Shown here piece after piece: positions 39,133 through 50,343 of a stretch of 64,000 bases of DNA. The position numbers and the translations under genes were made by a program. Positions within the stretch are counted from its first letter, which is position 1. Every line of letters begins with the position of its first letter. Source of the DNA: Escherichia phage pEC-N1203-2Af.1; sequence record OQ540978.1; one strand, given 5' to 3'. The notes beneath the pieces are model-generated. The model saw only the letters and a list, made by a program, of their open reading frames with translations, did no database searches and was not told the origin of the DNA.

Positions 39133-39681
39133 TTAGGCTTTGGGGGTAACACCTGTGAATTCACAAGTGGCTGTTACAAGAGGTTTAGTCTTGTGTGTAG
39201 CTGCAACAGAGACTGTACCAGTAGCAGCATCAGCAAGAGTCAAAAGACCAGCTGCACTGACAGTACCTGCTTCAGTAGGGGTTACAACAAAATCATAATC
39301 ACTACCAGCAGAATTGGTTACAGTAAACATTGTAGAGAAGGCAGTAGTAGAACCACCGACTTTACCAGCAATAGGACCACGACTTACAATTGTAGGTTCA
39401 GGGTCAGCAATAGCTGAGATCGTAGATGTACCGGATTTACCACCTTTAGTAGCTTTCACTGTAATCGGGGTTTCTTGCGACGCACTCGGTGCAGTGTACA
39501 GTCCAGAAACAGAAATAGCCCCACCACCCTCAACGGACCAAACAAATCCAGTTGTTGATGTGGAGCTATCACTCATTTGTGCTGTAGCTGTAAACTGCTG
39601 AGTAGCCCCCGTCGGAAGGCTTGCAACCGACGAAGGACTAACAGTTATGGTATCTACTGTTACGCCGCCACCGCCTTTCCC
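39133..39681 (-). CDS. Ig-like capsid extension expressed by -1 frameshift from the major capsid gene
   Basis: -1 frame open from 39741 to 39133; reads GKGGGGVTVDTITVSPSSVASLPTGATQQFTATAQ... continuous with the Ig-like ORF. Confidence 0.6.
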   Translation of the reverse strand, partial: GKGGGGVTVDTITVSPSSVASLPTGATQQFTATAQMSDSSTSTTGFVWSVEGGGAISVSGLYTAPSASQETPITVKATKGGKSGTSTISAIADPEPTIVSRGPIAGKVGGSTTAFSTMFTVTNSAGSDYDFVVTPTEAGTVSAAGLLTLADAATGTVSVAATHKTKPLVTATCEFTGVTPKA

Positions 39682-42093: not shown

Positions 42094-44337
42094 TTACTTT
42101 TTACTTCCAAGACGTTTGCCCGGAATCCGTGAATCTTTGAGAGAAGCTTGTTGCTCTTTCTTAGTTACATTTGCTTCTTTCTTCTGGAGTTCCAAAGTTT
42201 TATCCTGAACACGAGTTTGCTGAACAATCTTCTCTTGGTCAACCTGATGCTCCATAACCATCTGCAATTCTTTCAGTACAGACTCATACTGACGGACCTG
42301 CTGTTGCATAAGAGCTAGCTTGTGCTTAGCTTGTTCCAGAGTTGCATTGTTATCTTCTTTACGGTTTTCCAGAGTCATAGCATCTGCTGCATTTTCTTGC
42401 TTGAACTGCAACTCTTCCTGACGCAGACTTAATTCATCCGCAGCTTTCTGCTGTTCGAATGTAGTACGTTCACGCTGGTCGAATGCATCAGCAATCATCT
42501 TCTGAGAAGAAGCCTGTACGTTCTCAACCTGTGCTTTAGTCATCTCGAGCTGGAGGATTTCCATCGGAGACGGCTCAGGAGGCTGATACTGTTCCAGAGG
42601 CAGTAAGTATTTATGAGTGTCTTTAATACCCATCAACTCAAAGATCTGTGCAGTCATGTAACGGTCTTGCTCCAAACCGAAGAGAGGTGCTAGCTGTGCA
42701 TCTGCTGCAATCAGCTGTTTCAAGCTAATCAGTTTCTGTGCACGTTCTGCTTTCTCATTAGGAGAGATGGCTACAACAACTTGAAGATTATGACGAGCTG
42801 GTAATTGTTTCGGATTAACCTGAACCATACCACGAGGAGTTTGTACCTCAATAGGAACTTCACCGTTTTCTCTGATAAGGCTGTAAATACCACGCATCAA
42901 TTCAACCATACCGTTGTGAGCAATGTTACGACATACCATACGGAGACGGTTCTGTGCAGCATTCATCATCAAGCCTACGGTTGCATAAGCGTTATCGTTC
43001 TTAAACACATCAGGGTTGATACCCATGCCAAGTTTAGTTACACCGGTACGTGTCTCTTTAAGCTCCTCAGACATGCCTAGGAGGCCGTCAATACCTTGAG
43101 GTAGGTTATGGTATGGGAACAGGTCAATAGCGTCCTGACGTTCCATTTCAACCACTCCACCGGGACGGTTATCAAGCAGAGAGCGGCGATCGTATGCACC
43201 AACAAGAGCTTTGTATCGACCATAGTTAGCATTGTTGACGTTATCAATATAACCACGAACTAACGCGGTACGTAAATCCTGAATATCTTTCGTAATGTCA
43301 TAGACTGATTGACCATAGAAGGAACCCGGAATCGGATACGGACAGAAGGTTACAAACGGAATGTGAGTTACTTCTTCAGTGTGAAGGATATGCTCACCAG
43401 CTTGAATAACCTGATAGAGTTTAGATTCTTTATTCTTATCTAGAACACCAGTACGGATGTAGTGCTCATAAACCCAAACCATAGTAGCGATATCTTCAGT
43501 ATCTGTACCAATGTCAGCATCAATGTCCTGACGCCAGTCAGTACGAGACCAAGCAACTGTAGATTGAGTGGTATCCATCGTGTCTGTCCAGTCGTTGAAT
43601 GCTTCAATCTCATCTTTAGGGAAGCCCATAGCAACCAGATCTTCTTTAGAACGACGTACACGATGACAGAAGTATTGTGCATCTGCAAAAGAGGTAGCAT
43701 GTTCATCAACAAAGATTTGCTCTGAAGGAACATATTCAACTTTCACACGTTTAACAGTTTGTTCGTAAGTAACTTTAACATCAACTGTACCATCTTCGTT
43801 TTCTTCAGTGAATATTTCCAGATTCTTGAGTCCACCAGCTTCTAATCCCTGAACATATGCAGCCAATGCTTCCGGTGGTACACCTTCAGCTTCTTCAGTT
43901 TGAGTAGAAGTGTGCTCATCCCAATAGTATTTGATAAAAGAGTTACGAGTAACCAGACATTCTTGTGCAGCAGAGGAGATAATATTGTATCCCGGATTAT
44001 CACGCAGAAGAATTTGGTTAACTAATTTAGTTGCTACATCAGCAGCATCAGAATCCTGTTGGTTATCAGCTACGAAAGTAACTGCTTCATCACCAGAACA
44101 GAATACGTTAATAATATCTTGCAGTGTACCGTTAACAGATTCCCAAACAGTACGATCTACCCAACTAGAGCTGCCAGCAGTTACTGGTGCAGGTAAGTTA
44201 CCATAGAAATATTCCCAAGCTTCACGAGCATAGCCCTTAACAGCCATGTCAACGTAACCTTGAGCGTAATTAAAACGACGTTGAAGGTCAACACGTAACT
44301 CGTCCAACACCTCTTCACTATATTTTTGCTTAGCCAT
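42094..44337 (-). CDS. portal protein
   Basis: 747-aa ORF directly downstream of large terminase; C-terminal coiled coil. Confidence 0.6.
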   Translation of the reverse strand: MAKQKYSEEVLDELRVDLQRRFNYAQGYVDMAVKGYAREAWEYFYGNLPAPVTAGSSSWVDRTVWESVNGTLQDIINVFCSGDEAVTFVADNQQDSDAADVATKLVNQILLRDNPGYNIISSAAQECLVTRNSFIKYYWDEHTSTQTEEAEGVPPEALAAYVQGLEAGGLKNLEIFTEENEDGTVDVKVTYEQTVKRVKVEYVPSEQIFVDEHATSFADAQYFCHRVRRSKEDLVAMGFPKDEIEAFNDWTDTMDTTQSTVAWSRTDWRQDIDADIGTDTEDIATMVWVYEHYIRTGVLDKNKESKLYQVIQAGEHILHTEEVTHIPFVTFCPYPIPGSFYGQSVYDITKDIQDLRTALVRGYIDNVNNANYGRYKALVGAYDRRSLLDNRPGGVVEMERQDAIDLFPYHNLPQGIDGLLGMSEELKETRTGVTKLGMGINPDVFKNDNAYATVGLMMNAAQNRLRMVCRNIAHNGMVELMRGIYSLIRENGEVPIEVQTPRGMVQVNPKQLPARHNLQVVVAISPNEKAERAQKLISLKQLIAADAQLAPLFGLEQDRYMTAQIFELMGIKDTHKYLLPLEQYQPPEPSPMEILQLEMTKAQVENVQASSQKMIADAFDQRERTTFEQQKAADELSLRQEELQFKQENAADAMTLENRKEDNNATLEQAKHKLALMQQQVRQYESVLKELQMVMEHQVDQEKIVQQTRVQDKTLELQKKEANVTKKEQQASLKDSRIPGKRLGSKK

Positions 44338-44360
44338 CTATTCTCTCCCTCGGTTGATAG

Positions 44361-44392
44361 CTTAAATAAAAGAAGGGAGGACAAACCTCCCC
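44361..44392 (-). terminator. hairpin/attenuator between terminase and portal
   Basis: On - strand GGGAGG-TTTGTC-CCTCCC then TTCTTTTATTT. Confidence 0.35.
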
Positions 44393-44398
44393 CTTACT

Positions 44399-45940
44399 TT
44401 AGTAGCTCTGATTCCATCTGCTTACGTTTGCCTCATACAAAGAAGCGCTTCCGTAGCTAACATCATGCTTAGAGCGACCACGATGTGTAACAGAGCACGC
44501 TGAATAACGCATTGCATCCATTAAGTCATCATGTTCTTTAATAATCTTACCAACCTTACGGTGATATCTAGCTTTCTCTTCGAATAGCTTAGCGTTAGCG
44601 GCTGTGTTAAAGACTTTAAAGCGTCCACTCATCATTCTTTCTCGGATATCTGTGATTCCCGGTTCTACAAAGAAGTTCTTTTTACCATCCATTCCAATTT
44701 TGTTGTAGAAGGTCTCACTCTGTACGTTAACTCCTGCATTCTTATAGAATTGAGCAACAGATGAACCACTACCTTTCTCAGTATTGTCCGCATCATGCGG
44801 TAGGATGACAGGAATCCACTGACCACGACCATTAATAGCTGGAGCATGATACACTGGAGTAAAGCCACCTTCTTTATATGAGTCGTAAACATAGATAGTA
44901 TCCGTGTTTGCGTCGTAAGCTGTCCAAACAGCAGCAGTTGGGTGATCAATACCAATATCAATTGCACAGACACGTTTCCACGTATCAGGAATTTCGAATG
45001 GTTCACATTTAATTGTGTCATCCGATACATCATAAATCAAACCACTTCCTAACAATGGCATACCTTTTGAACGCATCTCTAATTGCCACGCTGGAATACC
45101 TTCAGTCATATCTTTTATATCTTGGTCAGTGATGTGTCCACCTAAGTCTGCATGAGCATCCCACCAAGAAGCATTCTGGAAATATAGAGAACCTGTGTTC
45201 TCATCTCCTTCACCTTTCATAAATTTATCTACCAGTTCAGTTAAACCGTTCTCTGGTGTAGCTGTAATTGTAACTAGACCTTTAGTTGTGAGTGTACGTG
45301 TGACGCACTGTGCGAATATAGCCATAGACTCGTATGGATCTTCTTCGTCTAACCAAATGTAGTCAACTGTTGCACCCATCAATGTGTGTTCACCCTGTTG
45401 GGTTGAACGGAATTCTAATGTACTTAAACCGTCAAACTCTCCTCTCTCATTTTGATGTTTGATTTGTACGATTTGAAGTTTGTTACCATCTCGTTCTATC
45501 GTATCAATGACGATAGCATCACGAGGAATGACACCTGTCCCTAATAAATTTGTATCCTTTCCGATAGGTGTACCAAACAGTTCCTTTTGCAATACCTTCC
45601 TTGTGGAATCCCCTGTAATACCAACTGCCCATGCTAAGATAGGTCTTTTAAATTTATATCCTGTCCACCAAGTTGGGTAGCGACCTGTGACATGACAAGC
45701 AAACTCGTATGCCTCGCTGTAAGATTTACCAACACGGTTCGCTGCACACAAGAATCTAAAGCGATGCTTCAATCCTGCTGCATAAAATTTCTTTTGGAAG
45801 TCATACGCCTTGAAAGACAAAATCTTATTATACTTCCTCCATTGGTCACGCTCTTTCAACATATTCAATAGTGCTTTCTTTTCCTCTACACTAAGGTTGT
45901 TACCAGTTAGAGCTTCATAAATTTGTTTATCTAATGACAT
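44399..45940 (-). CDS. terminase large subunit
   Basis: Walker A-like AANRVGKS near the N-terminus; C-terminal nuclease-like IDIGIDHPTAAVW; typical size. Confidence 0.75.
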   Translation of the reverse strand: MSLDKQIYEALTGNNLSVEEKKALLNMLKERDQWRKYNKILSFKAYDFQKKFYAAGLKHRFRFLCAANRVGKSYSEAYEFACHVTGRYPTWWTGYKFKRPILAWAVGITGDSTRKVLQKELFGTPIGKDTNLLGTGVIPRDAIVIDTIERDGNKLQIVQIKHQNERGEFDGLSTLEFRSTQQGEHTLMGATVDYIWLDEEDPYESMAIFAQCVTRTLTTKGLVTITATPENGLTELVDKFMKGEGDENTGSLYFQNASWWDAHADLGGHITDQDIKDMTEGIPAWQLEMRSKGMPLLGSGLIYDVSDDTIKCEPFEIPDTWKRVCAIDIGIDHPTAAVWTAYDANTDTIYVYDSYKEGGFTPVYHAPAINGRGQWIPVILPHDADNTEKGSGSSVAQFYKNAGVNVQSETFYNKIGMDGKKNFFVEPGITDIRERMMSGRFKVFNTAANAKLFEEKARYHRKVGKIIKEHDDLMDAMRYSACSVTHRGRSKHDVSYGSASLYEANVSRWNQSY

Positions 45941-46057
45941 ACTTCCTCCAGTTTAAAAATAGAAAAGGGAAAGTCCCTTCGTCAAAGAACCTCCCCCTCT
46001 CTTATTCGCTGCATATCTGGTTAACTTAAAATCCAGCATCCATACAGCTTCCTTTAA

Positions 46058-46531
46058 TTAACTCTCGTCCGCTTCCTCCCCCTTTTCAGCGTCCTCAGAG
46101 TTGTCTTCTTCTGGAGGCATAACGTCGATACCAAGTGCTCCAGTCAAGAAGTCCTTGATTTGTGCATTCAATGATTCTTCGTTGATTACATTCTCTTCCT
46201 CAATCTTAACTTCAACAGAGGCCGCCTTAGGGTATACCAGATCTGCAACTTTTGATGCAGCCTTGAATCTAAGATCAGGTGGAATATTAGGATCTTCGTA
46301 AATTTGAATTAACACTTCATCAGGAGACAAATGACTTGCAGCAACACGGTCCAACATTAATTGTGTCAGTTTACCTCTACTACCTCTGGGTCGTCCGAAT
46401 TTATTTCCCTTTTGAAACTTCCCATTGCTTGGGTTCATACCACGGCTTTCAAGTTCTTCCGTTACTCCGGGTAATCTTCCTGTAATCTCAGCTACCTGTG
46501 CAGGTGTGAGTTCTCCGTTTTCTCCAAACAT
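46058..46531 (-). CDS. putative terminase small subunit
   Basis: N-terminal HTH-like LTPAQVAEITGRLPGV, basic patch, acidic C-terminus; sits just upstream of terminase large. Confidence 0.45.
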   Translation of the reverse strand: MFGENGELTPAQVAEITGRLPGVTEELESRGMNPSNGKFQKGNKFGRPRGSRGKLTQLMLDRVAASHLSPDEVLIQIYEDPNIPPDLRFKAASKVADLVYPKAASVEVKIEEENVINEESLNAQIKDFLTGALGIDVMPPEEDNSEDAEKGEEADES

Positions 46532-46560
46532 TTTATACTCCTTCTACATTATCAACAACA

Positions 46561-46583
46561 CAAAAAGCCTCCCAAGGGAGGCA
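46561..46583 (-). terminator. rho-independent terminator
   Basis: On - strand GCCTCCC-TTG-GGAGGC then TTTTTG. Confidence 0.6.
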
Positions 46584-46587
46584 AACA

Positions 46588-47247
46588 TTACTTACAATCA
46601 CCAACGGACAGGTTAAACATCTTACCTAAAGCAATCGTCTCACCCTCCCACGGAAGTTCTACACCCTTCTCTTCCTCTAAAATAATAGAGCCGTCGACCA
46701 AAAATTTTTCGTAGTCTCGCAGTGCGTCGTCTACTAACTCACTCTTGTGAATCCACGTAATTGTTTCCGTACCATCCTCTTCGATTCGAACATCACGATG
46801 CCATTCATCTTTGGAGGTAATGTAATCATGGAGCATTTCATATTCAGCTTCTTCAATCATCTCAATCATTGCACGAGCATAGTCAGGGAGGTGATCATGT
46901 TTAGTAGATACATACGGAACAACTTCTAGATTGGAAGGACACTTACGTTTAACTTCCTTTGCTACAGTGAAATAGTCTTTCACATCTTTAGCTTCTGTAC
47001 GAGGAATCAAACCTTCCCATATTTCACGGGTTGAAGGAGCATAACCATACACAGAACCATGAGCCAGTTGTTTTACCATCTCAACTCGGGACTTACCTCC
47101 AGTAGTTTCATGAACACGGTTCAGATAGAGAATGTCCTCTGGTAAAGGACGGAGAGGACCACCATTGAAAACAACCTCGCCTTTACATCCCATGTTCTCA
47201 TAGATTGCATTCAGTGTATTAGTTCCTGTCATATTGTTATTCATCAT
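46588..47247 (-). CDS. hypothetical protein
   Basis: Start moved to ATGATG at 47247 (AAGGAGAG upstream). Confidence 0.45.
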   Translation of the reverse strand: MMNNNMTGTNTLNAIYENMGCKGEVVFNGGPLRPLPEDILYLNRVHETTGGKSRVEMVKQLAHGSVYGYAPSTREIWEGLIPRTEAKDVKDYFTVAKEVKRKCPSNLEVVPYVSTKHDHLPDYARAMIEMIEEAEYEMLHDYITSKDEWHRDVRIEEDGTETITWIHKSELVDDALRDYEKFLVDGSIILEEEKGVELPWEGETIALGKMFNLSVGDCK

Positions 47248-47509
47248 TCTCTCCTTCAGTGTCAGTGTTATCACTATAACGATAGTCTTTATAAGTCTCA
47301 GCCTTGTAGGTTACAAAGCATCTCATGTACAACCAGCCCAATGAACTCAGGTCTATTGTAACATCAAAATCTTCATCATCGTCTAGGTCTACTAATCTAC
47401 CCAAACAAGTTATTACTTCAGTGCCCCCAACTTCTTCAACTTTAAATGCACATTTTTCAGTGCGGAAGTAAGGAATCAACTCTGATAAAAAGTCTAATAC
47501 TAAATTCAT
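47237..47509 (-). CDS. hypothetical protein
   Basis: Start moved to ATG at 47509 (GAGGAGAAG upstream); acidic C-terminus. Confidence 0.4.
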   Translation of the reverse strand: MNLVLDFLSELIPYFRTEKCAFKVEEVGGTEVITCLGRLVDLDDDEDFDVTIDLSSLGWLYMRCFVTYKAETYKDYRYSDNTDTEGENDE

Positions 47510-47659
47510 AATTCTTCTCCTCTGAATAAGATTCAATCTACCCATTCACCGTTGCCACCTTTTTGGTAGAACCATGCATTGCGGGATACTGAGTACACTA
47601 TGTCCTTATAAATTAAGGAGTGTAGTTCTTTTAAAAACTTCATATTCTATCCTCTGAAT

Positions 47660-48560
47660 AAAAGTATAAAGGGCTAGGCATATCCAACCCGTAAAGGCCA
47701 CATCATACTAACAACCCGTGTACGCTGAAGTAAAGGGCATGTCATAAAGGGGACTTCATAAAGGCCATGTCACGTTAAGGCCTGTCCACCCACGTACTGA
47801 ATCTCAACTTACCACATTCCTTACACTTCCATGTTGATAGGTAGAGACCATGTATTCTTTCATCCCCGTAAGCTTTACGAAGAAGGTAGTAATTGTGCTT
47901 ACACTTCATCCGTCTAAATACTTTAATTAGATCCATTAAGTTCTCTCTTAAGCTTATATACATCTGTTTAAAATTCTGATTTGACCGAGTGGGGCTAGGC
48001 ACTCCGCGGCGAATTGTTAAAAAGGGGGAGTCCTCATTTAAAAAATGGTTATTGGCAATGCCTTTACACCTTCTTCCGTGTTCCAACCTTTCCCCGTGCC
48101 TACTCCCCGTTATTCTTTCCCCGTGTATACTACCCAATACATTTACTACCCGTTTATTTAGTACCCCTTTAAAGAGTAGGAGAAAGGCTAGTCACTGATA
48201 ATGATTAGATTAAGGCACTATGAATAGGCTAATAATACCCCACAGTTACTACCCACTTCCCCCATAGTTTGATTGTAAATAGTTTCAATGGTAATGATTA
48301 TGAGTGTAATAATGATGTATGTATTAATTAAGTGGAAGATAGTAATTAACAGTTATTATTTCTTTTTATTCTTTTCTTTTTCAGCGTGCGTGAGTACGCA
48401 GTACGAACGGTTTTTGATGTTTGAGTTATACAATTATTTAAGTGGTATATTATTACCGCACTATCTGGCCATGCTTCCCCGTGGTCTGTTCTGCGGTTGT
48501 GTGTTCCCCGTCCTATATAGTAGAAATAGTTTACCCGTGGTTGCTTGTCTTCCTTGTTAA
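47660..48560. repeat. intergenic cluster of short direct repeats (TAAAGG(G/C)C, CCCGT, TACTACCC)
   Basis: Six TAAAGG copies in 47665-47770; nine CCCGT in about 900 bp; AT-rich tract 48300-48400. Confidence 0.5.
47775..47936 (-). CDS. hypothetical small Cys-containing protein
   Basis: 54-aa ORF from internal ATG; CKHN...CKEC. Confidence 0.25.
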   Translation of the reverse strand: MDLIKVFRRMKCKHNYYLLRKAYGDERIHGLYLSTWKCKECGKLRFSTWVDRP

Positions 48561-48607
48561 GTAGTAGTAAATTGAAGCCTATTGATTGAGTGATTGGAGT
48601 GATAAAA

Positions 48608-48781
48608 ATGATGATTCTAGTAATGATGGCAATGGCTATAGTGTTTCCTTTACTTGTTCTGATCGTTTGTGAAGTAGTTGAGCCGTTCGCTGATAGCAAG
48701 TTAAGCCCGAAAGATAAGCCTAGTAAGTTTAATGGCGCTACTTTTAGCAGAAAGAAAGTTAGAAAGATGGTTGCAATGTAA
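48608..48781 (+). CDS. small membrane protein
   Basis: Hydrophobic MMILVMMAMAIVFPLLVLIV. Confidence 0.35.
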   Translation: MMILVMMAMAIVFPLLVLIVCEVVEPFADSKLSPKDKPSKFNGATFSRKKVRKMVAM

Positions 48782-48836
48782 GAAAGCGTGTCCTATTATA
48801 TCCCTACCGTCCTGATTTTCTGAATAGCAAGGATTT

Positions 48837-49001
48837 ATGATGGGTATTAAATTCCGTGTTATGGTTGACCTTGAAGGATTCGGCGCTCCTGATGAGTTAG
48901 CTGGTATCTTCTTATCTATGGATACCGCTATATTGTGCGCTGATTCCATTCGTGAAATTGAAGGCTTGAACACCTATATTATTGAATCTATCGAGGATTA
49001 A
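48837..49001 (+). CDS. hypothetical small protein
   Basis: 54-aa ORF translated by hand; AAGGA upstream. Confidence 0.35.
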   Translation: MMGIKFRVMVDLEGFGAPDELAGIFLSMDTAILCADSIREIEGLNTYIIESIED

Positions 49002-49004
49002 ATC

Positions 49005-49496
49005 ATGGCTAAAATAATGCAAGTAGTAAATCTGGCAAGTTATGCACTAGTCGCCGCGATCGGTGTTAGTGCGCTGGTATCTTCCTTTCCTGATAAGGCT
49101 GTTGCTAGTCCTGCTCCTGCAACTGATGCGGCTAGTGTCTTCGTTAGTTCCATCAATAAAGGTTGGATGATTTGCAACGGTGCTGATAGTGACACCAATC
49201 AGATCGTTTTAAAGGTTAAATTCAGTAACGTTTCCCGTGATGGTCTGGTCGTTAGTACCAAAACACTGGACAATCAGCCTAACAGTGATCTAGTTCTCAA
49301 GCGTACTGATAACGATGCGGATATGGTGACTTATGGCACTGTACAACGTTACAGCCATGCGAAAGCTGTCACGAATCTGGTCAGTTATGGCCCGGTTAAG
49401 GAGTCGATGATCGCCACCACGGTTTACAATAACGCTGATAACGCTGTTTATACCGTTCACGTTAATCTAGCCAACTGTATTAAGGCTAGTAAGTAA
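49005..49496 (+). CDS. secreted/periplasmic protein (signal peptide)
   Basis: N-terminal hydrophobic signal-like segment ending ...AVASPAPA; higher GC than the late genes. Confidence 0.5.
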   Translation: MAKIMQVVNLASYALVAAIGVSALVSSFPDKAVASPAPATDAASVFVSSINKGWMICNGADSDTNQIVLKVKFSNVSRDGLVVSTKTLDNQPNSDLVLKRTDNDADMVTYGTVQRYSHAKAVTNLVSYGPVKESMIATTVYNNADNAVYTVHVNLANCIKASK

Positions 49497-49522
49497 ATAA
49501 CTTATTTTTGGGAGTGTAAAAA

Positions 49523-49789
49523 ATGACTATCAAAGAAATTAGATTATCTAATGGCTTTTCTTGTTTTGTTGGCGATCAATCTATCATGTTTAACACGCTT
49601 GATGGTCAGCTTACAGTGCCTATTATCACTTTTTGCAAAATGGACTTTCAACCGGCTAGAAACTGGTTAGCATTTGCTGGCCTTGAAATCACCCGCGATG
49701 ATTTTCGTTCAATTTATTTTGACGGTGGCTTATCACTGGCGAATCTGCTCAATCATGGACTAATTGAGGGTGATACCAATGGGGAATGA
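49523..49789 (+). CDS. hypothetical protein
   Basis: 88-aa ORF. Confidence 0.45.
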   Translation: MTIKEIRLSNGFSCFVGDQSIMFNTLDGQLTVPIITFCKMDFQPARNWLAFAGLEITRDDFRSIYFDGGLSLANLLNHGLIEGDTNGE

Positions 49790-49977
49790 TTGTTTCTGGC
49801 GTTGCTTATTCGTTGTTACAGTGGCGTTATTCGTCGCTGATATGCTTTATTCTTACATCCTTTGAGGTCCGGTTGTGTTGTTTCTGTTTTTGTTTGCCAT
49901 TGGCTTCCTTTCTTTAAACTATTTATTGATTGTTGCCGCTTTCGATATTCTTAAACTAATTAAAGAGGTTTATTGCT

Positions 49978-50343
49978 ATGTGGTTTATTAAATTCATCGT
50001 TAAGATGGTTGTAGGCTTTTTTCTGGTTGTTCTTCTGTTAGGTGTCCTGCTATCGGCTATGGGTAGCGTTAAGGCTGCAACGTTTTCCCCTGATACGGTT
50101 GACGGTTTACAGTGTACCTATCTCGTAGAAAACTATGAAACTGGTAAAAAGTCACCTAAAGTTATTATTTTGCATGTAAATGATTTTGATCATGTGCAAT
50201 CAGATAGTAAAACTATTCTACTGGTAAACGAAACTACCGGTAAACAAATCACGGTCAATCACTTGATGCGCTCATCGTTGACGCTCTTTGATGAGTCCAT
50301 GAATGAAATTGAGTCCGGTAATGGTCAATGTGTAAATCCATAG
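49978..50343 (+). CDS. secreted or membrane-anchored protein
   Basis: N-terminal hydrophobic segment VGFFLVVLLLGVLLSAMGSVKA. Confidence 0.5.
   Translation: MWFIKFIVKMVVGFFLVVLLLGVLLSAMGSVKAATFSPDTVDGLQCTYLVENYETGKKSPKVIILHVNDFDHVQSDSKTILLVNETTGKQITVNHLMRSSLTLFDESMNEIESGNGQCVNP

Follow-up and report, generated by a model that had tools for sequence, protein, structure and literature searches.

The DNA of phages of the phiEco32 group is bounded on both sides by short direct terminal repeats (DTRs). Restriction profiling, primer walking and subcloning served to map the ends of phiEco32, according to the paper on phage YF01, in which 30 phages of the group are listed with DTRs of 192-193 bp and with a highly conserved core at nt ~130-170 (PMC9965538). 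In phage SU10, a sharp drop-off of the reads was described at both ends, together with an inner repeat of the form CCCTTTTTTA-10 nt-CCCTTTTTTA, situated 21 nt from the end of the DTR (PMC4281155). The Kuravirus-type phages have no RNA polymerase gene (PMC4281155), and the phage studied here has a sigma factor only. Here we describe the predicted counterpart of this junction in Escherichia phage pEC-N1203-2Af.1 (record OQ540978.1), of which a stretch of 64,000 nucleotides, hereafter referred to as the window, was analysed. The study concerns the kilobase at positions 47546-48590, which a previous sequence-only reading of the window had singled out as repeat-dense and gene-poor, and which it regarded as suited to an origin of replication, a packaging recognition site or the physical genome ends.

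Repeated short motifs close to packaging junctions are found in other phage groups as well. In phage lambda, cosB consists of repeated short sites that have the cut site on one side and the terminase genes on the other, and that are bound by the small terminase subunit. The arrays flanking the terminal repeat of phage T7 were reportedly named SRL and SRR by Dunn and Studier in 1983, and the phiOL and phiOR promoters next to that repeat are said, after a 1990 study by Chung and Hinkle that PMC7881722 cites, to take part in packaging. The LUZ24/PaP3/tf group (Bruynoghevirus) has terminal repeats of ~185 bp and a nick consensus, TACTRTGMC, confined to one strand (PMC3517423).

Results

The repeat-dense kilobase contains a homolog of the Kuravirus terminal repeat

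The studied region very probably corresponds to the concatemer junction of a Kuravirus podophage, at which the ends of the linear virion DNA would meet and which carries arrays of candidate terminase sites. The phiEco32 record is linear and has an identical 193-bp repeat at both ends. This repeat aligned to positions 48189->48018 of the window (151 of 176 positions, 86%; E 5e-51), and this was its single match. The junction assembled from the two phiEco32 ends was collinear with the window on both flanks, across 44180-50074, and the start of the gene encoding the large terminase subunit (TerL) lay 2240 nt from the phiEco32 end versus 2250 nt from position 48189 of the window. Position 1 of six left-end records (phiEco32, SU10, Paul, YF01, CHD5UKE1 and WFI101126) fell on position 48189, and the final base of the IMEP8 record fell on position 47997. 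In the records of Paul (PhageTerm) and YF01 (full-length nanopore reads), positions 1-193 are annotated as the DTR. The assignment of 47997-48189 as the terminal-repeat homolog, with predicted virion ends at 48189 (left, in the phiEco32 orientation) and 47997 (right), is thus strongly supported by homology to a mapped repeat and by the termini of related records, and the physical genome ends proposed by the sequence-only reading were borne out at this level. The window holds only one copy of the 193-bp repeat because the assembly was collapsed or permuted; with the repeat present once, the virion ends would therefore be located inside the studied kilobase. A headful (pac) site, which would give circularly permuted, terminally redundant virion DNA with imprecise ends, was considered and, judged from the relatives, appears unlikely: SU10, YF01 and Paul show sharp fixed ends and an exact 193-bp repeat.

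In DNA searches, the region and its flanks matched 97 phage records, nearly all of which were Escherichia/Shigella phages of the genus Kuravirus. The best matches (172-1, MN05 and NJ01) were 83-91% identical over the region, depending on the search mode, and ~93% identical in the adjacent early genes. A plus-strand gene block at 1-17 kb is followed by a minus-strand block at ~17-47.5 kb, which includes the terminase and portal genes among others, and by plus-strand genes from 48.6 kb; this layout agrees with Kuravirus. By these similarities the window is assigned to a Kuravirus (Gordonclarkvirinae, phiEco32-like) coliphage, the group being podophages with elongated heads, and its minus strand corresponds to the phiEco32 orientation. 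The positions of the features are collected in Table 1.

Table 1. Features of the predicted junction and of its surroundings, in window coordinates. Arrows within motifs mark predicted cuts.
Feature	Position	Strand	Remarks
TerL, 513 aa	44399-45940	-	Pfam Terminase_6N and Terminase_6C; phi32_7 homolog
Putative small terminase subunit (TerS), 157 aa	46058-46531	-	candidate reader of the repeat arrays
gp36-type late promoter TAATGTAGA	46551->46543	-	identical to SU10 late promoter 'gttgataatgtagaaggagtataaaatg' (SU10 Table S2)
Intrinsic terminator gcctcccttgggaggcttttt	46582->46562	-	before the late promoter, upstream of the TerS-like gene
Small open reading frame (ORF), 36 aa	47533-47643	-	AGAGGA ribosome-binding site; present in some of the relatives
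Six 14-nt TAAAGG-type units	47667, 47692, 47731, 47745, 47759, 47775 (array 47667-47788)	+	between two small minus-strand ORFs
Ten CCCGT sites, longer consensus ~YTTCCCCGTG	47688-48538	+	motif count
Small gene, 44 aa, MKCKH...CKEC (C..H...CxxC), zinc-ribbon-like	47775-47909	-	phi32_1 homolog, first gene inside the left end
Near-invariant 31-bp block GTTTAAAATTCTGATTTGACCGAGTGGGGCT	47966-47996		abuts the DTR on the minus-strand gene (terminase) side
Right DTR boundary GGCT↓AGGCA	47993-48001	+	predicted cut between 47996 and 47997
Homolog of the Kuravirus 193-bp DTR	47997-48189	n/a	homology to the mapped phiEco32 repeat
Conserved DTR core TAAAAAGGGGGAGTCCTCATTTAAAAAATGG	48018-48048		counterpart of the SU10 inner repeat, exactly 21 nt from 47997
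Inverted TAAAGG-type unit TAAAGGCATTGCCA	48066->48053	-	inside the DTR; kept in 15/16 genomes
Inverted TAAAGG-type unit TAAAGGGGTACTAA	48171->48158	-	inside the DTR; kept in 15/16 genomes
Left DTR boundary GGCT↓AGTCA	48186-48194	+	predicted cut between 48189 and 48190
Conserved block A	48256-48335	+	identity 0.89; candidate extended -10 TGTAATAAT (48305-48313) and box ATTAATTAAGTGG (48323-48335)
Variable AT-rich tract	48336-48430	+	T-rich on the plus strand; between blocks A and B
Conserved block B	48431-48500	+	identity 0.90; box ATTATTTAAGTGG (48433-48445) overlaps candidate extended -10 TGGTATATT (48443-48451)
First plus-strand early gene, 57-aa hydrophobic protein	48608-48781	+	reading from 48599 matches phrog_7482, E 1.6e-13

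The boundaries of the repeat share a short motif, and one adjoins a near-invariant block

The conservation figures reported below derive from an alignment of 16 genomes, and the motifs were counted in 16 relatives. The core was the best-conserved part of the DTR, with a mean identity of 0.94 over 48018-48060, and it matches the conserved region at nt ~130-170 of the YF01 paper. Both edges of the DTR fall within the decamer GGCTAG[GT]CA, which occurs three times in 64 kb (47672, 47993 and 48186); two of these copies form the DTR boundaries, and the predicted cut divides the motif at the same point in each. Of the 16 genomes, 15 retained the CTAG core at the right boundary and 12 at the left. 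The left boundary reads GAAAGGCT↓AG, similar to a TAAAGG-type unit, and the sequence GAAAGGC(T/C) was retained there in 15 of 16 genomes. The third copy of the decamer (GGCTAGGCA) is situated at 47672-47680, within the first TAAAGG unit and 325 bp inside the left end. Apart from the phage studied here, this copy was shared by PE006, O18-011 and SGF2 alone; it might represent a cryptic cut site or have arisen by recombination.

The conservation of the region was patchy, which points to the presence of cis-acting elements. The mean identity reached 0.98 over 47968-47997, as opposed to 0.82 for the DTR. The block at 47966-47996 is a candidate for a terminase recognition or cleavage determinant, or else may belong to the sigma-70 promoter predicted for gene 1; the SU10 authors placed a putative promoter of this class here, just inside the left repeat. 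The 66 bp past the left boundary (48190-48255) were the most variable part, with an identity of 0.52.

CCCGT sites are confined to one strand and outlast the sequence between them

The repeats that the sequence-only reading noted within 47546-48590 were confirmed and stand far above chance; several of its details had to be revised. It counted nine CCCGT pentamers; ten are present, all on the plus strand and none on the minus strand (starts at 47688, 47715, 47865, 48093, 48106, 48120, 48149, 48478, 48507 and 48534). Given the rest of the window, 0.38 copies would be expected per 1045 nt (Poisson P ~1e-11), and the other 1045-nt stretches of the window contained no more than three. Two of the sites fall in the TAAAGG array, one in the 44-aa ORF, four in the DTR and three on the early-gene side, with spacings of 13, 14 and 29 within the DTR and of 29 and 27 on the early side.

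The count and orientation of the CCCGT sites were held in the 16 relatives, though the sequence between them diverges. Every one of these genomes carried 9-12 copies on the plus strand and none on the minus strand, and individual sites were kept in 10-16 of 16 genomes. The CCCGT positions were conserved at 0.86, compared with 0.71 for their 8-nt flanks (P 9e-5). In half of the phages, unrelated sequence had taken the place of that between the early-side sites, and in Bas89 the replacement was complete, while the sites themselves stayed in place. When viral contigs were scanned for three CCCCGT copies in close succession, at least 120 seemingly unrelated stretches were returned, and the result was uninformative.

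TAAAGG-type units occur beside, within and at the edge of the repeat

Six TAAAGG(G/C)C repeats at a spacing of roughly 17 bp had been reported for this kilobase. The number six holds for the units of the array, four of which are exact (47667, 47692, 47731 and 47759; the sole exact copies in 64 kb) and two of which are the variants TAAAGGGG (47745) and TTAAGGCC (47775). The spacing does not: the tandem unit, TAAAGGGCATGTCA, is 14 bp long, and the start-to-start distances are 25, 39, 14, 14 and 16. The array was present in all 16 relatives, with 4-7 TAAAGG copies on the same strand per locus, so that its copy number varies. As TAAAGG units are found inside the DTR and at its left boundary, both motif classes are tied to the DTR rather than to the neighbouring genes.

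The three copies of TACTACCC noted earlier are indeed present (48128, 48144 and 48247) and are its sole plus-strand copies in the window. The relatives carried 0-2 copies, the sequence being missing from most of them, and TACTACCC was dropped as an element in its own right, which it probably is not.

Neighbouring genes and the terminase

The low coding capacity ascribed to the interval was confirmed for 47644-47774 and 47910-48607, which are non-coding; two small minus-strand ORFs are nevertheless located inside it. Residues 2-44 of the 44-aa product matched phrog_7696 (E 2.3e-13), and the gene is annotated in NJ01, O18-011, Bas94, phiEc_1, Bas89 and phiEco32. Two diverged alleles of this phi32_1-like gene were observed among the relatives. 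The 36-aa ORF, for which protein-family searches gave no family match, is swapped for other small genes in the phiEco32-type phages. The junction flanks exchange modules on both sides (47536-47660 and 48510-48620). The 36-aa ORF and the first plus-strand gene are kept in one set of relatives (172-1, MN05, NJ01 and others); the phiEco32-type set has unrelated sequence there, with phi32_2/3 and gp128 in place of these two genes.

The terminase genes lie 1.5-3.6 kb away. The putative TerS has the sequence of the SU10 protein (100% identity) and is close to gp6 of phiEco32 (98.7%). A profile built from four sequences had two small terminases, 6w7t and 7joq, as its two best matches in the PDB, at sub-threshold E values of 0.06-0.09, and a direct phmmer search against the PDB sequences gave no match for the TerS-like protein. 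The YF01 authors assigned the protein to the PaP3 TerS by HHpred (PMC9965538).

Two further observations concern the surroundings of the junction. A tRNA-Arg gene (anticodon TCT) is present at 58867-58941 on the plus strand, as in other Kuravirus phages. The 228-aa protein encoded at 46588-47274 on the minus strand is called an 'ABC transporter' in relatives and in PHROGs, yet it had no Pfam match at E <=0.01, and the label looks like an inherited mis-annotation.

Predicted promoters and terminators around the junction

The start of the late operon had been placed at the edge of the region. It is instead marked by the intrinsic terminator and the late promoter at 46543-46582, ~1 kb further to the left. 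The first minus-strand genes beside the terminal repeat were classed as early by the SU10 authors (PMC4281155). The four small minus-strand genes between the late promoter and the DTR form a separate, probably early unit.

On the other side of the DTR, blocks A and B were more conserved than the flanking genes (0.64-0.69). The AT-rich tract noted by the sequence-only reading was confirmed, with a GC content of 0.22-0.34 over ~48300-48450. The two blocks would carry early promoters for the host RNA polymerase; their extended -10 candidates were picked by eye. TGGTATATT was kept in 14 of 16 genomes and is directed at the plus-strand early genes. Sites of the form TGn-WAWAWT occur 20 times on the plus strand of the 64 kb, two of them within the 698-bp gap. 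A scan for consensus sigma-70 promoters gave nothing convincing in the region and no more sites than shuffles. The near-identical and almost invariant 13-mers ATTAATTAAGTGG and ATTATTTAAGTGG, 110 bp apart, bracket the T-rich tract; a plausible extended -10 element overlaps the second but not the first.

No exact copy of the gp36 late-promoter core, TAATGTAT, was present within 47000-49000. A relaxed search returned a one-mismatch variant, AAATGTAT, on the minus strand inside the DTR, at a conserved position. The element (T/A)AATG(T/A)AT at 48136-48144 on the minus strand resembles the promoter core of the gp36 sigma factor (AATGTA; tAATGTATA). It was found at the same DTR position in 14 of 16 genomes, pointing to the terminase side, and reads exactly TAATGTAT in SGF2, Bas90 and PGN6866, and the mismatched TAATGAAT in phiEco32. 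This DTR-internal element could be a late promoter, loosely parallel to phiOR/phiOL of T7.

Other candidate elements were discarded. A 90-aa plus-strand ORF at 48288-48560 was rejected as a gene, as it shows non-triplet indels among the relatives and has no ribosome-binding site. The Rfam search gave chance-level matches only, and no short-range inverted repeats were found in 47900-48560, hence no hairpin element. The terminator-like sites at 47690->47671 (minus strand) and 48479-48496 (plus strand) were weak, and the first was not conserved.

Equivalent junctions of distant relatives

A TerS-like protein of only ~50% identity is encoded by Cronobacter phage CsaP_009 and Salmonella phage 7-11, in which 1.7-2.8 kb of gene-less sequence occupy the equivalent junction. 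Their one-strand motifs differ from those of the window: ACTATG (10:0), ATCAGT (6:0) and CGTGTG (6:0). Such a change of motif is consistent with sites evolving alongside a phage protein rather than a host factor.

The 1.7-kb junction of vB_CsaP_009 (locus L021, 1824-3554) carries ACTATG at 10:0, in contexts such as TGACTATG and TACTATGG, which resemble the strand-specific LUZ24/tf nick consensus TACTRTGMC; the terminases are related. The Privateer paper assigns a 'novel ends type' to a phage of the genus of vB_CsaP_009. In Salmonella phage 7-11 (loci L022, 1-1749, and L023, 865-1917), ~2.8 kb without annotated genes extend across the record ends, with ATCAGT and CGTGTG each at 6:0; between the TerS-like and TerL genes of this phage stand five clustered tRNA genes.

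Discussion

The terminase of phages with short exact terminal repeats must recognise and cut the junction, which makes a packaging recognition site at this place plausible by analogy. In such a scheme, the terminase (putative TerS, 46058-46531, and TerL, 44399-45940) would cut concatemers at two identical GGCT↓AG sites, one at each edge of the DTR, and the DTR would be duplicated in the manner of T7, by staggered nicking and strand-displacement synthesis. The ten one-strand CCCGT sites before, inside and after the DTR would act as cis-acting protein-binding marks of the junction, most likely for TerS. The TAAAGG units would mark it likewise: six direct copies lie 210-330 bp in from the left end, the DTR holds two inverted ones, and one is placed at the left cut. 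The role of both motifs would resemble that of lambda cosB or of the CCTAAAG arrays of T7. The promoters predicted in 48256-48335 and 48431-48500 would read inward from the other genome end. Taken to its full extent, the proposal is that the CCCGT sites, the TAAAGG units and the boundary decamer GGCT↓AG(G/T)CA make up the complete cis-acting packaging signal of Gordonclarkvirinae, in which a PaP3-type TerS reads one-strand arrays on both sides of and within the DTR and directs two identical cuts; we put this forward tentatively, as a possibility that we consider less likely than not.

Several points weigh against the interpretation of the region as a packaging junction with terminase-site arrays. 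The ends predicted for this phage derive from relatives that are 77-91% identical across the region, and protein binding to CCCGT or TAAAGG is a candidate property of these sites. One CCCGT site falls in coding sequence. The putative status of TerS reflects sub-threshold profile matches (E 0.06-0.09) together with a published HHpred statement. The motif change in the distant relatives does not single out TerS, as everything has diverged there. The sigma-70 scan yielded no consensus promoter, the extended -10 candidates having been read by eye, and the array could instead serve transcription, DNA ejection or replication. A phage without its own RNA polymerase cannot take over the T7 mechanism unchanged; the SU10 authors likewise pointed out that phiEco32-like phages have no T7-type RNA polymerase and that the recognition and duplication of their ends are unexplained (PMC4281155).

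The CCCGT and TAAAGG motifs might alternatively be operators or other regulatory sites for the early units that read inward from both ends, or might pace the entry of the DNA. The genes on both sides are of the early class in SU10 and phiEco32, the sigma-70 promoter predicted by the SU10 authors falls just inside the left repeat, and two conserved extended -10-like elements face the plus-strand early genes, with three CCCGT sites just downstream of the second. We nevertheless consider a regulatory function rather unlikely: the DTR contains two TAAAGG units and four of the ten CCCGT sites, and its boundary is itself TAAAGG-like, so that the motifs are tied to the DTR and not to the promoters; no consensus promoter was found in the array, and the parallel with T7 concerns the junction and not promoters. 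Such a function, improbable as we judge it, would be compatible with a role in packaging.

That the region is a replication origin, composed of 14-bp TAAAGG iterons and an AT-rich unwinding element, appears very unlikely, and this suggestion of the sequence-only reading was not upheld. Direct repeats and a tract with a GC content of 0.22-0.34 do share one kilobase, and the cumulative GC skew has its minimum here; however, this minimum coincides with the switch in the direction of transcription and is thus not independent evidence. The array of 14-bp units is not beside the AT-rich tract but ~550 bp from it, and the two would stand at opposite virion ends because the DTR lies between them. No DnaA box with <=1 mismatch was found in 47000-49000, there was no initiator-like gene or domain among the neighbouring proteins, and the AT-rich tract was the least conserved part of the neighbourhood. 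Hardly any weight can be given to the idea that the short repeats are neutral by-products of replication slippage or recombination scars near the ends. The variable TAAAGG copy number, with units gained and lost in blocks, and the lack of conservation of the TACTACCC copies would suit it, but the CCCGT sites keep their number and one-strand orientation in all 16 genomes, show higher conservation than their flanks (P 9e-5) and outlast the replacement of the sequence between them, and the inverted TAAAGG units in the DTR are kept in 15 of 16 genomes.

The DTR of the genus has been known since 2008, and 30 phages were catalogued in 2023; the central result of this study is another member of that series. 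The true ends fix the gene order and the start point of the phage genome and explain the near gene-less kilobase, and the practical gain is small because the DTR of the genus is already known. What may be added is the repeat architecture, which offers concrete sites to mutate or footprint and is of moderate specialist interest. The CCCGT array, the link between TAAAGG and the DTR, and the shared boundary decamer were not described in the SU10, YF01, SU7, Privateer and gp79 literature (the original phiEco32 papers being outside this scope), and the flanking arrays appear to be undescribed. If the packaging proposal is true, T7-style duplication of the repeat would take place without a phage RNA polymerase, and for a phage that has short exact terminal repeats but lacks an RNA polymerase, the motifs would be the first recognition signal to be defined.

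Comparison with known packaging junctions

The closest described junctions are those of phiEco32, SU10, Paul and YF01. Their DTR is homologous to that of the window (86% identity to phiEco32), has the same length of 193 bp and the same position, flanked by gene 1 towards the terminase and by the early genes on the other side, and shares the conserved core, the inner A/T-run repeat and the end coordinates. In the window, in contrast to this group, the DTR is single and lies in the middle of the sequence. It differs further from phiEco32 in having the 36-aa ORF in place of phi32_2/3 and no gp128 homolog on the early side.

In concept, the arrangement is the same as that of lambda cosB, with the sites on the side from which the terminase genes are read. 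However, lambda has 12-nt cohesive ends and no terminal repeat, there is no homology of sequence or protein, and the TerS sites proposed here are candidates only. The LUZ24/PaP3/tf group shares with the window the short direct terminal repeats, a PaP3-type TerS (putative here) and short motifs on one strand, and differs in that its nick sites are spread along the genome rather than gathered at the junction. Nick sites of the LUZ24/tf type were looked for in the window and rejected: TACTRTGMC with <=1 mismatch occurred 31 times on both strands, versus 45 +/- 7 expected, with three exact copies.

Phage T7 has no sequence homology to the window, and phage DNA searches with the region returned no T7-group records. 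The motifs also differ (CCTAAAG in T7, CCCGT and TAAAGGSC here), with two motif classes in the window and one in T7, and in the window phage a small gene stands between the DTR and the main array. In the T7 record, phiOL is annotated at 405 and phiOR at 39229, whereas the window is without an exact TAATGTAT in 47000-49000. The likeness lies in the architecture. The 160-bp repeat of T7 is identical at both ends, and CCTAAAG is distributed 13:0 by strand, with two copies before, three within and eight after the repeat, the densest array being located just inside the left end. The CCCGT of the window is likewise a short one-strand motif placed before, within and after the repeat, at 10:0 (three on the early side, four in the DTR and three on the other side). 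The densest array is inside the left end in both phages, with a period of 12-15 bp in T7; both boundaries of the repeat fall in similar short sequences (CTATCTCACAG and CTATCTGTTACAG in T7); and early promoters for the host polymerase, predicted in the window, are situated a few hundred bp from the end. If the proposed signal is real, the long-unexplained CCTAAAG arrays of T7 would gain a testable counterpart.

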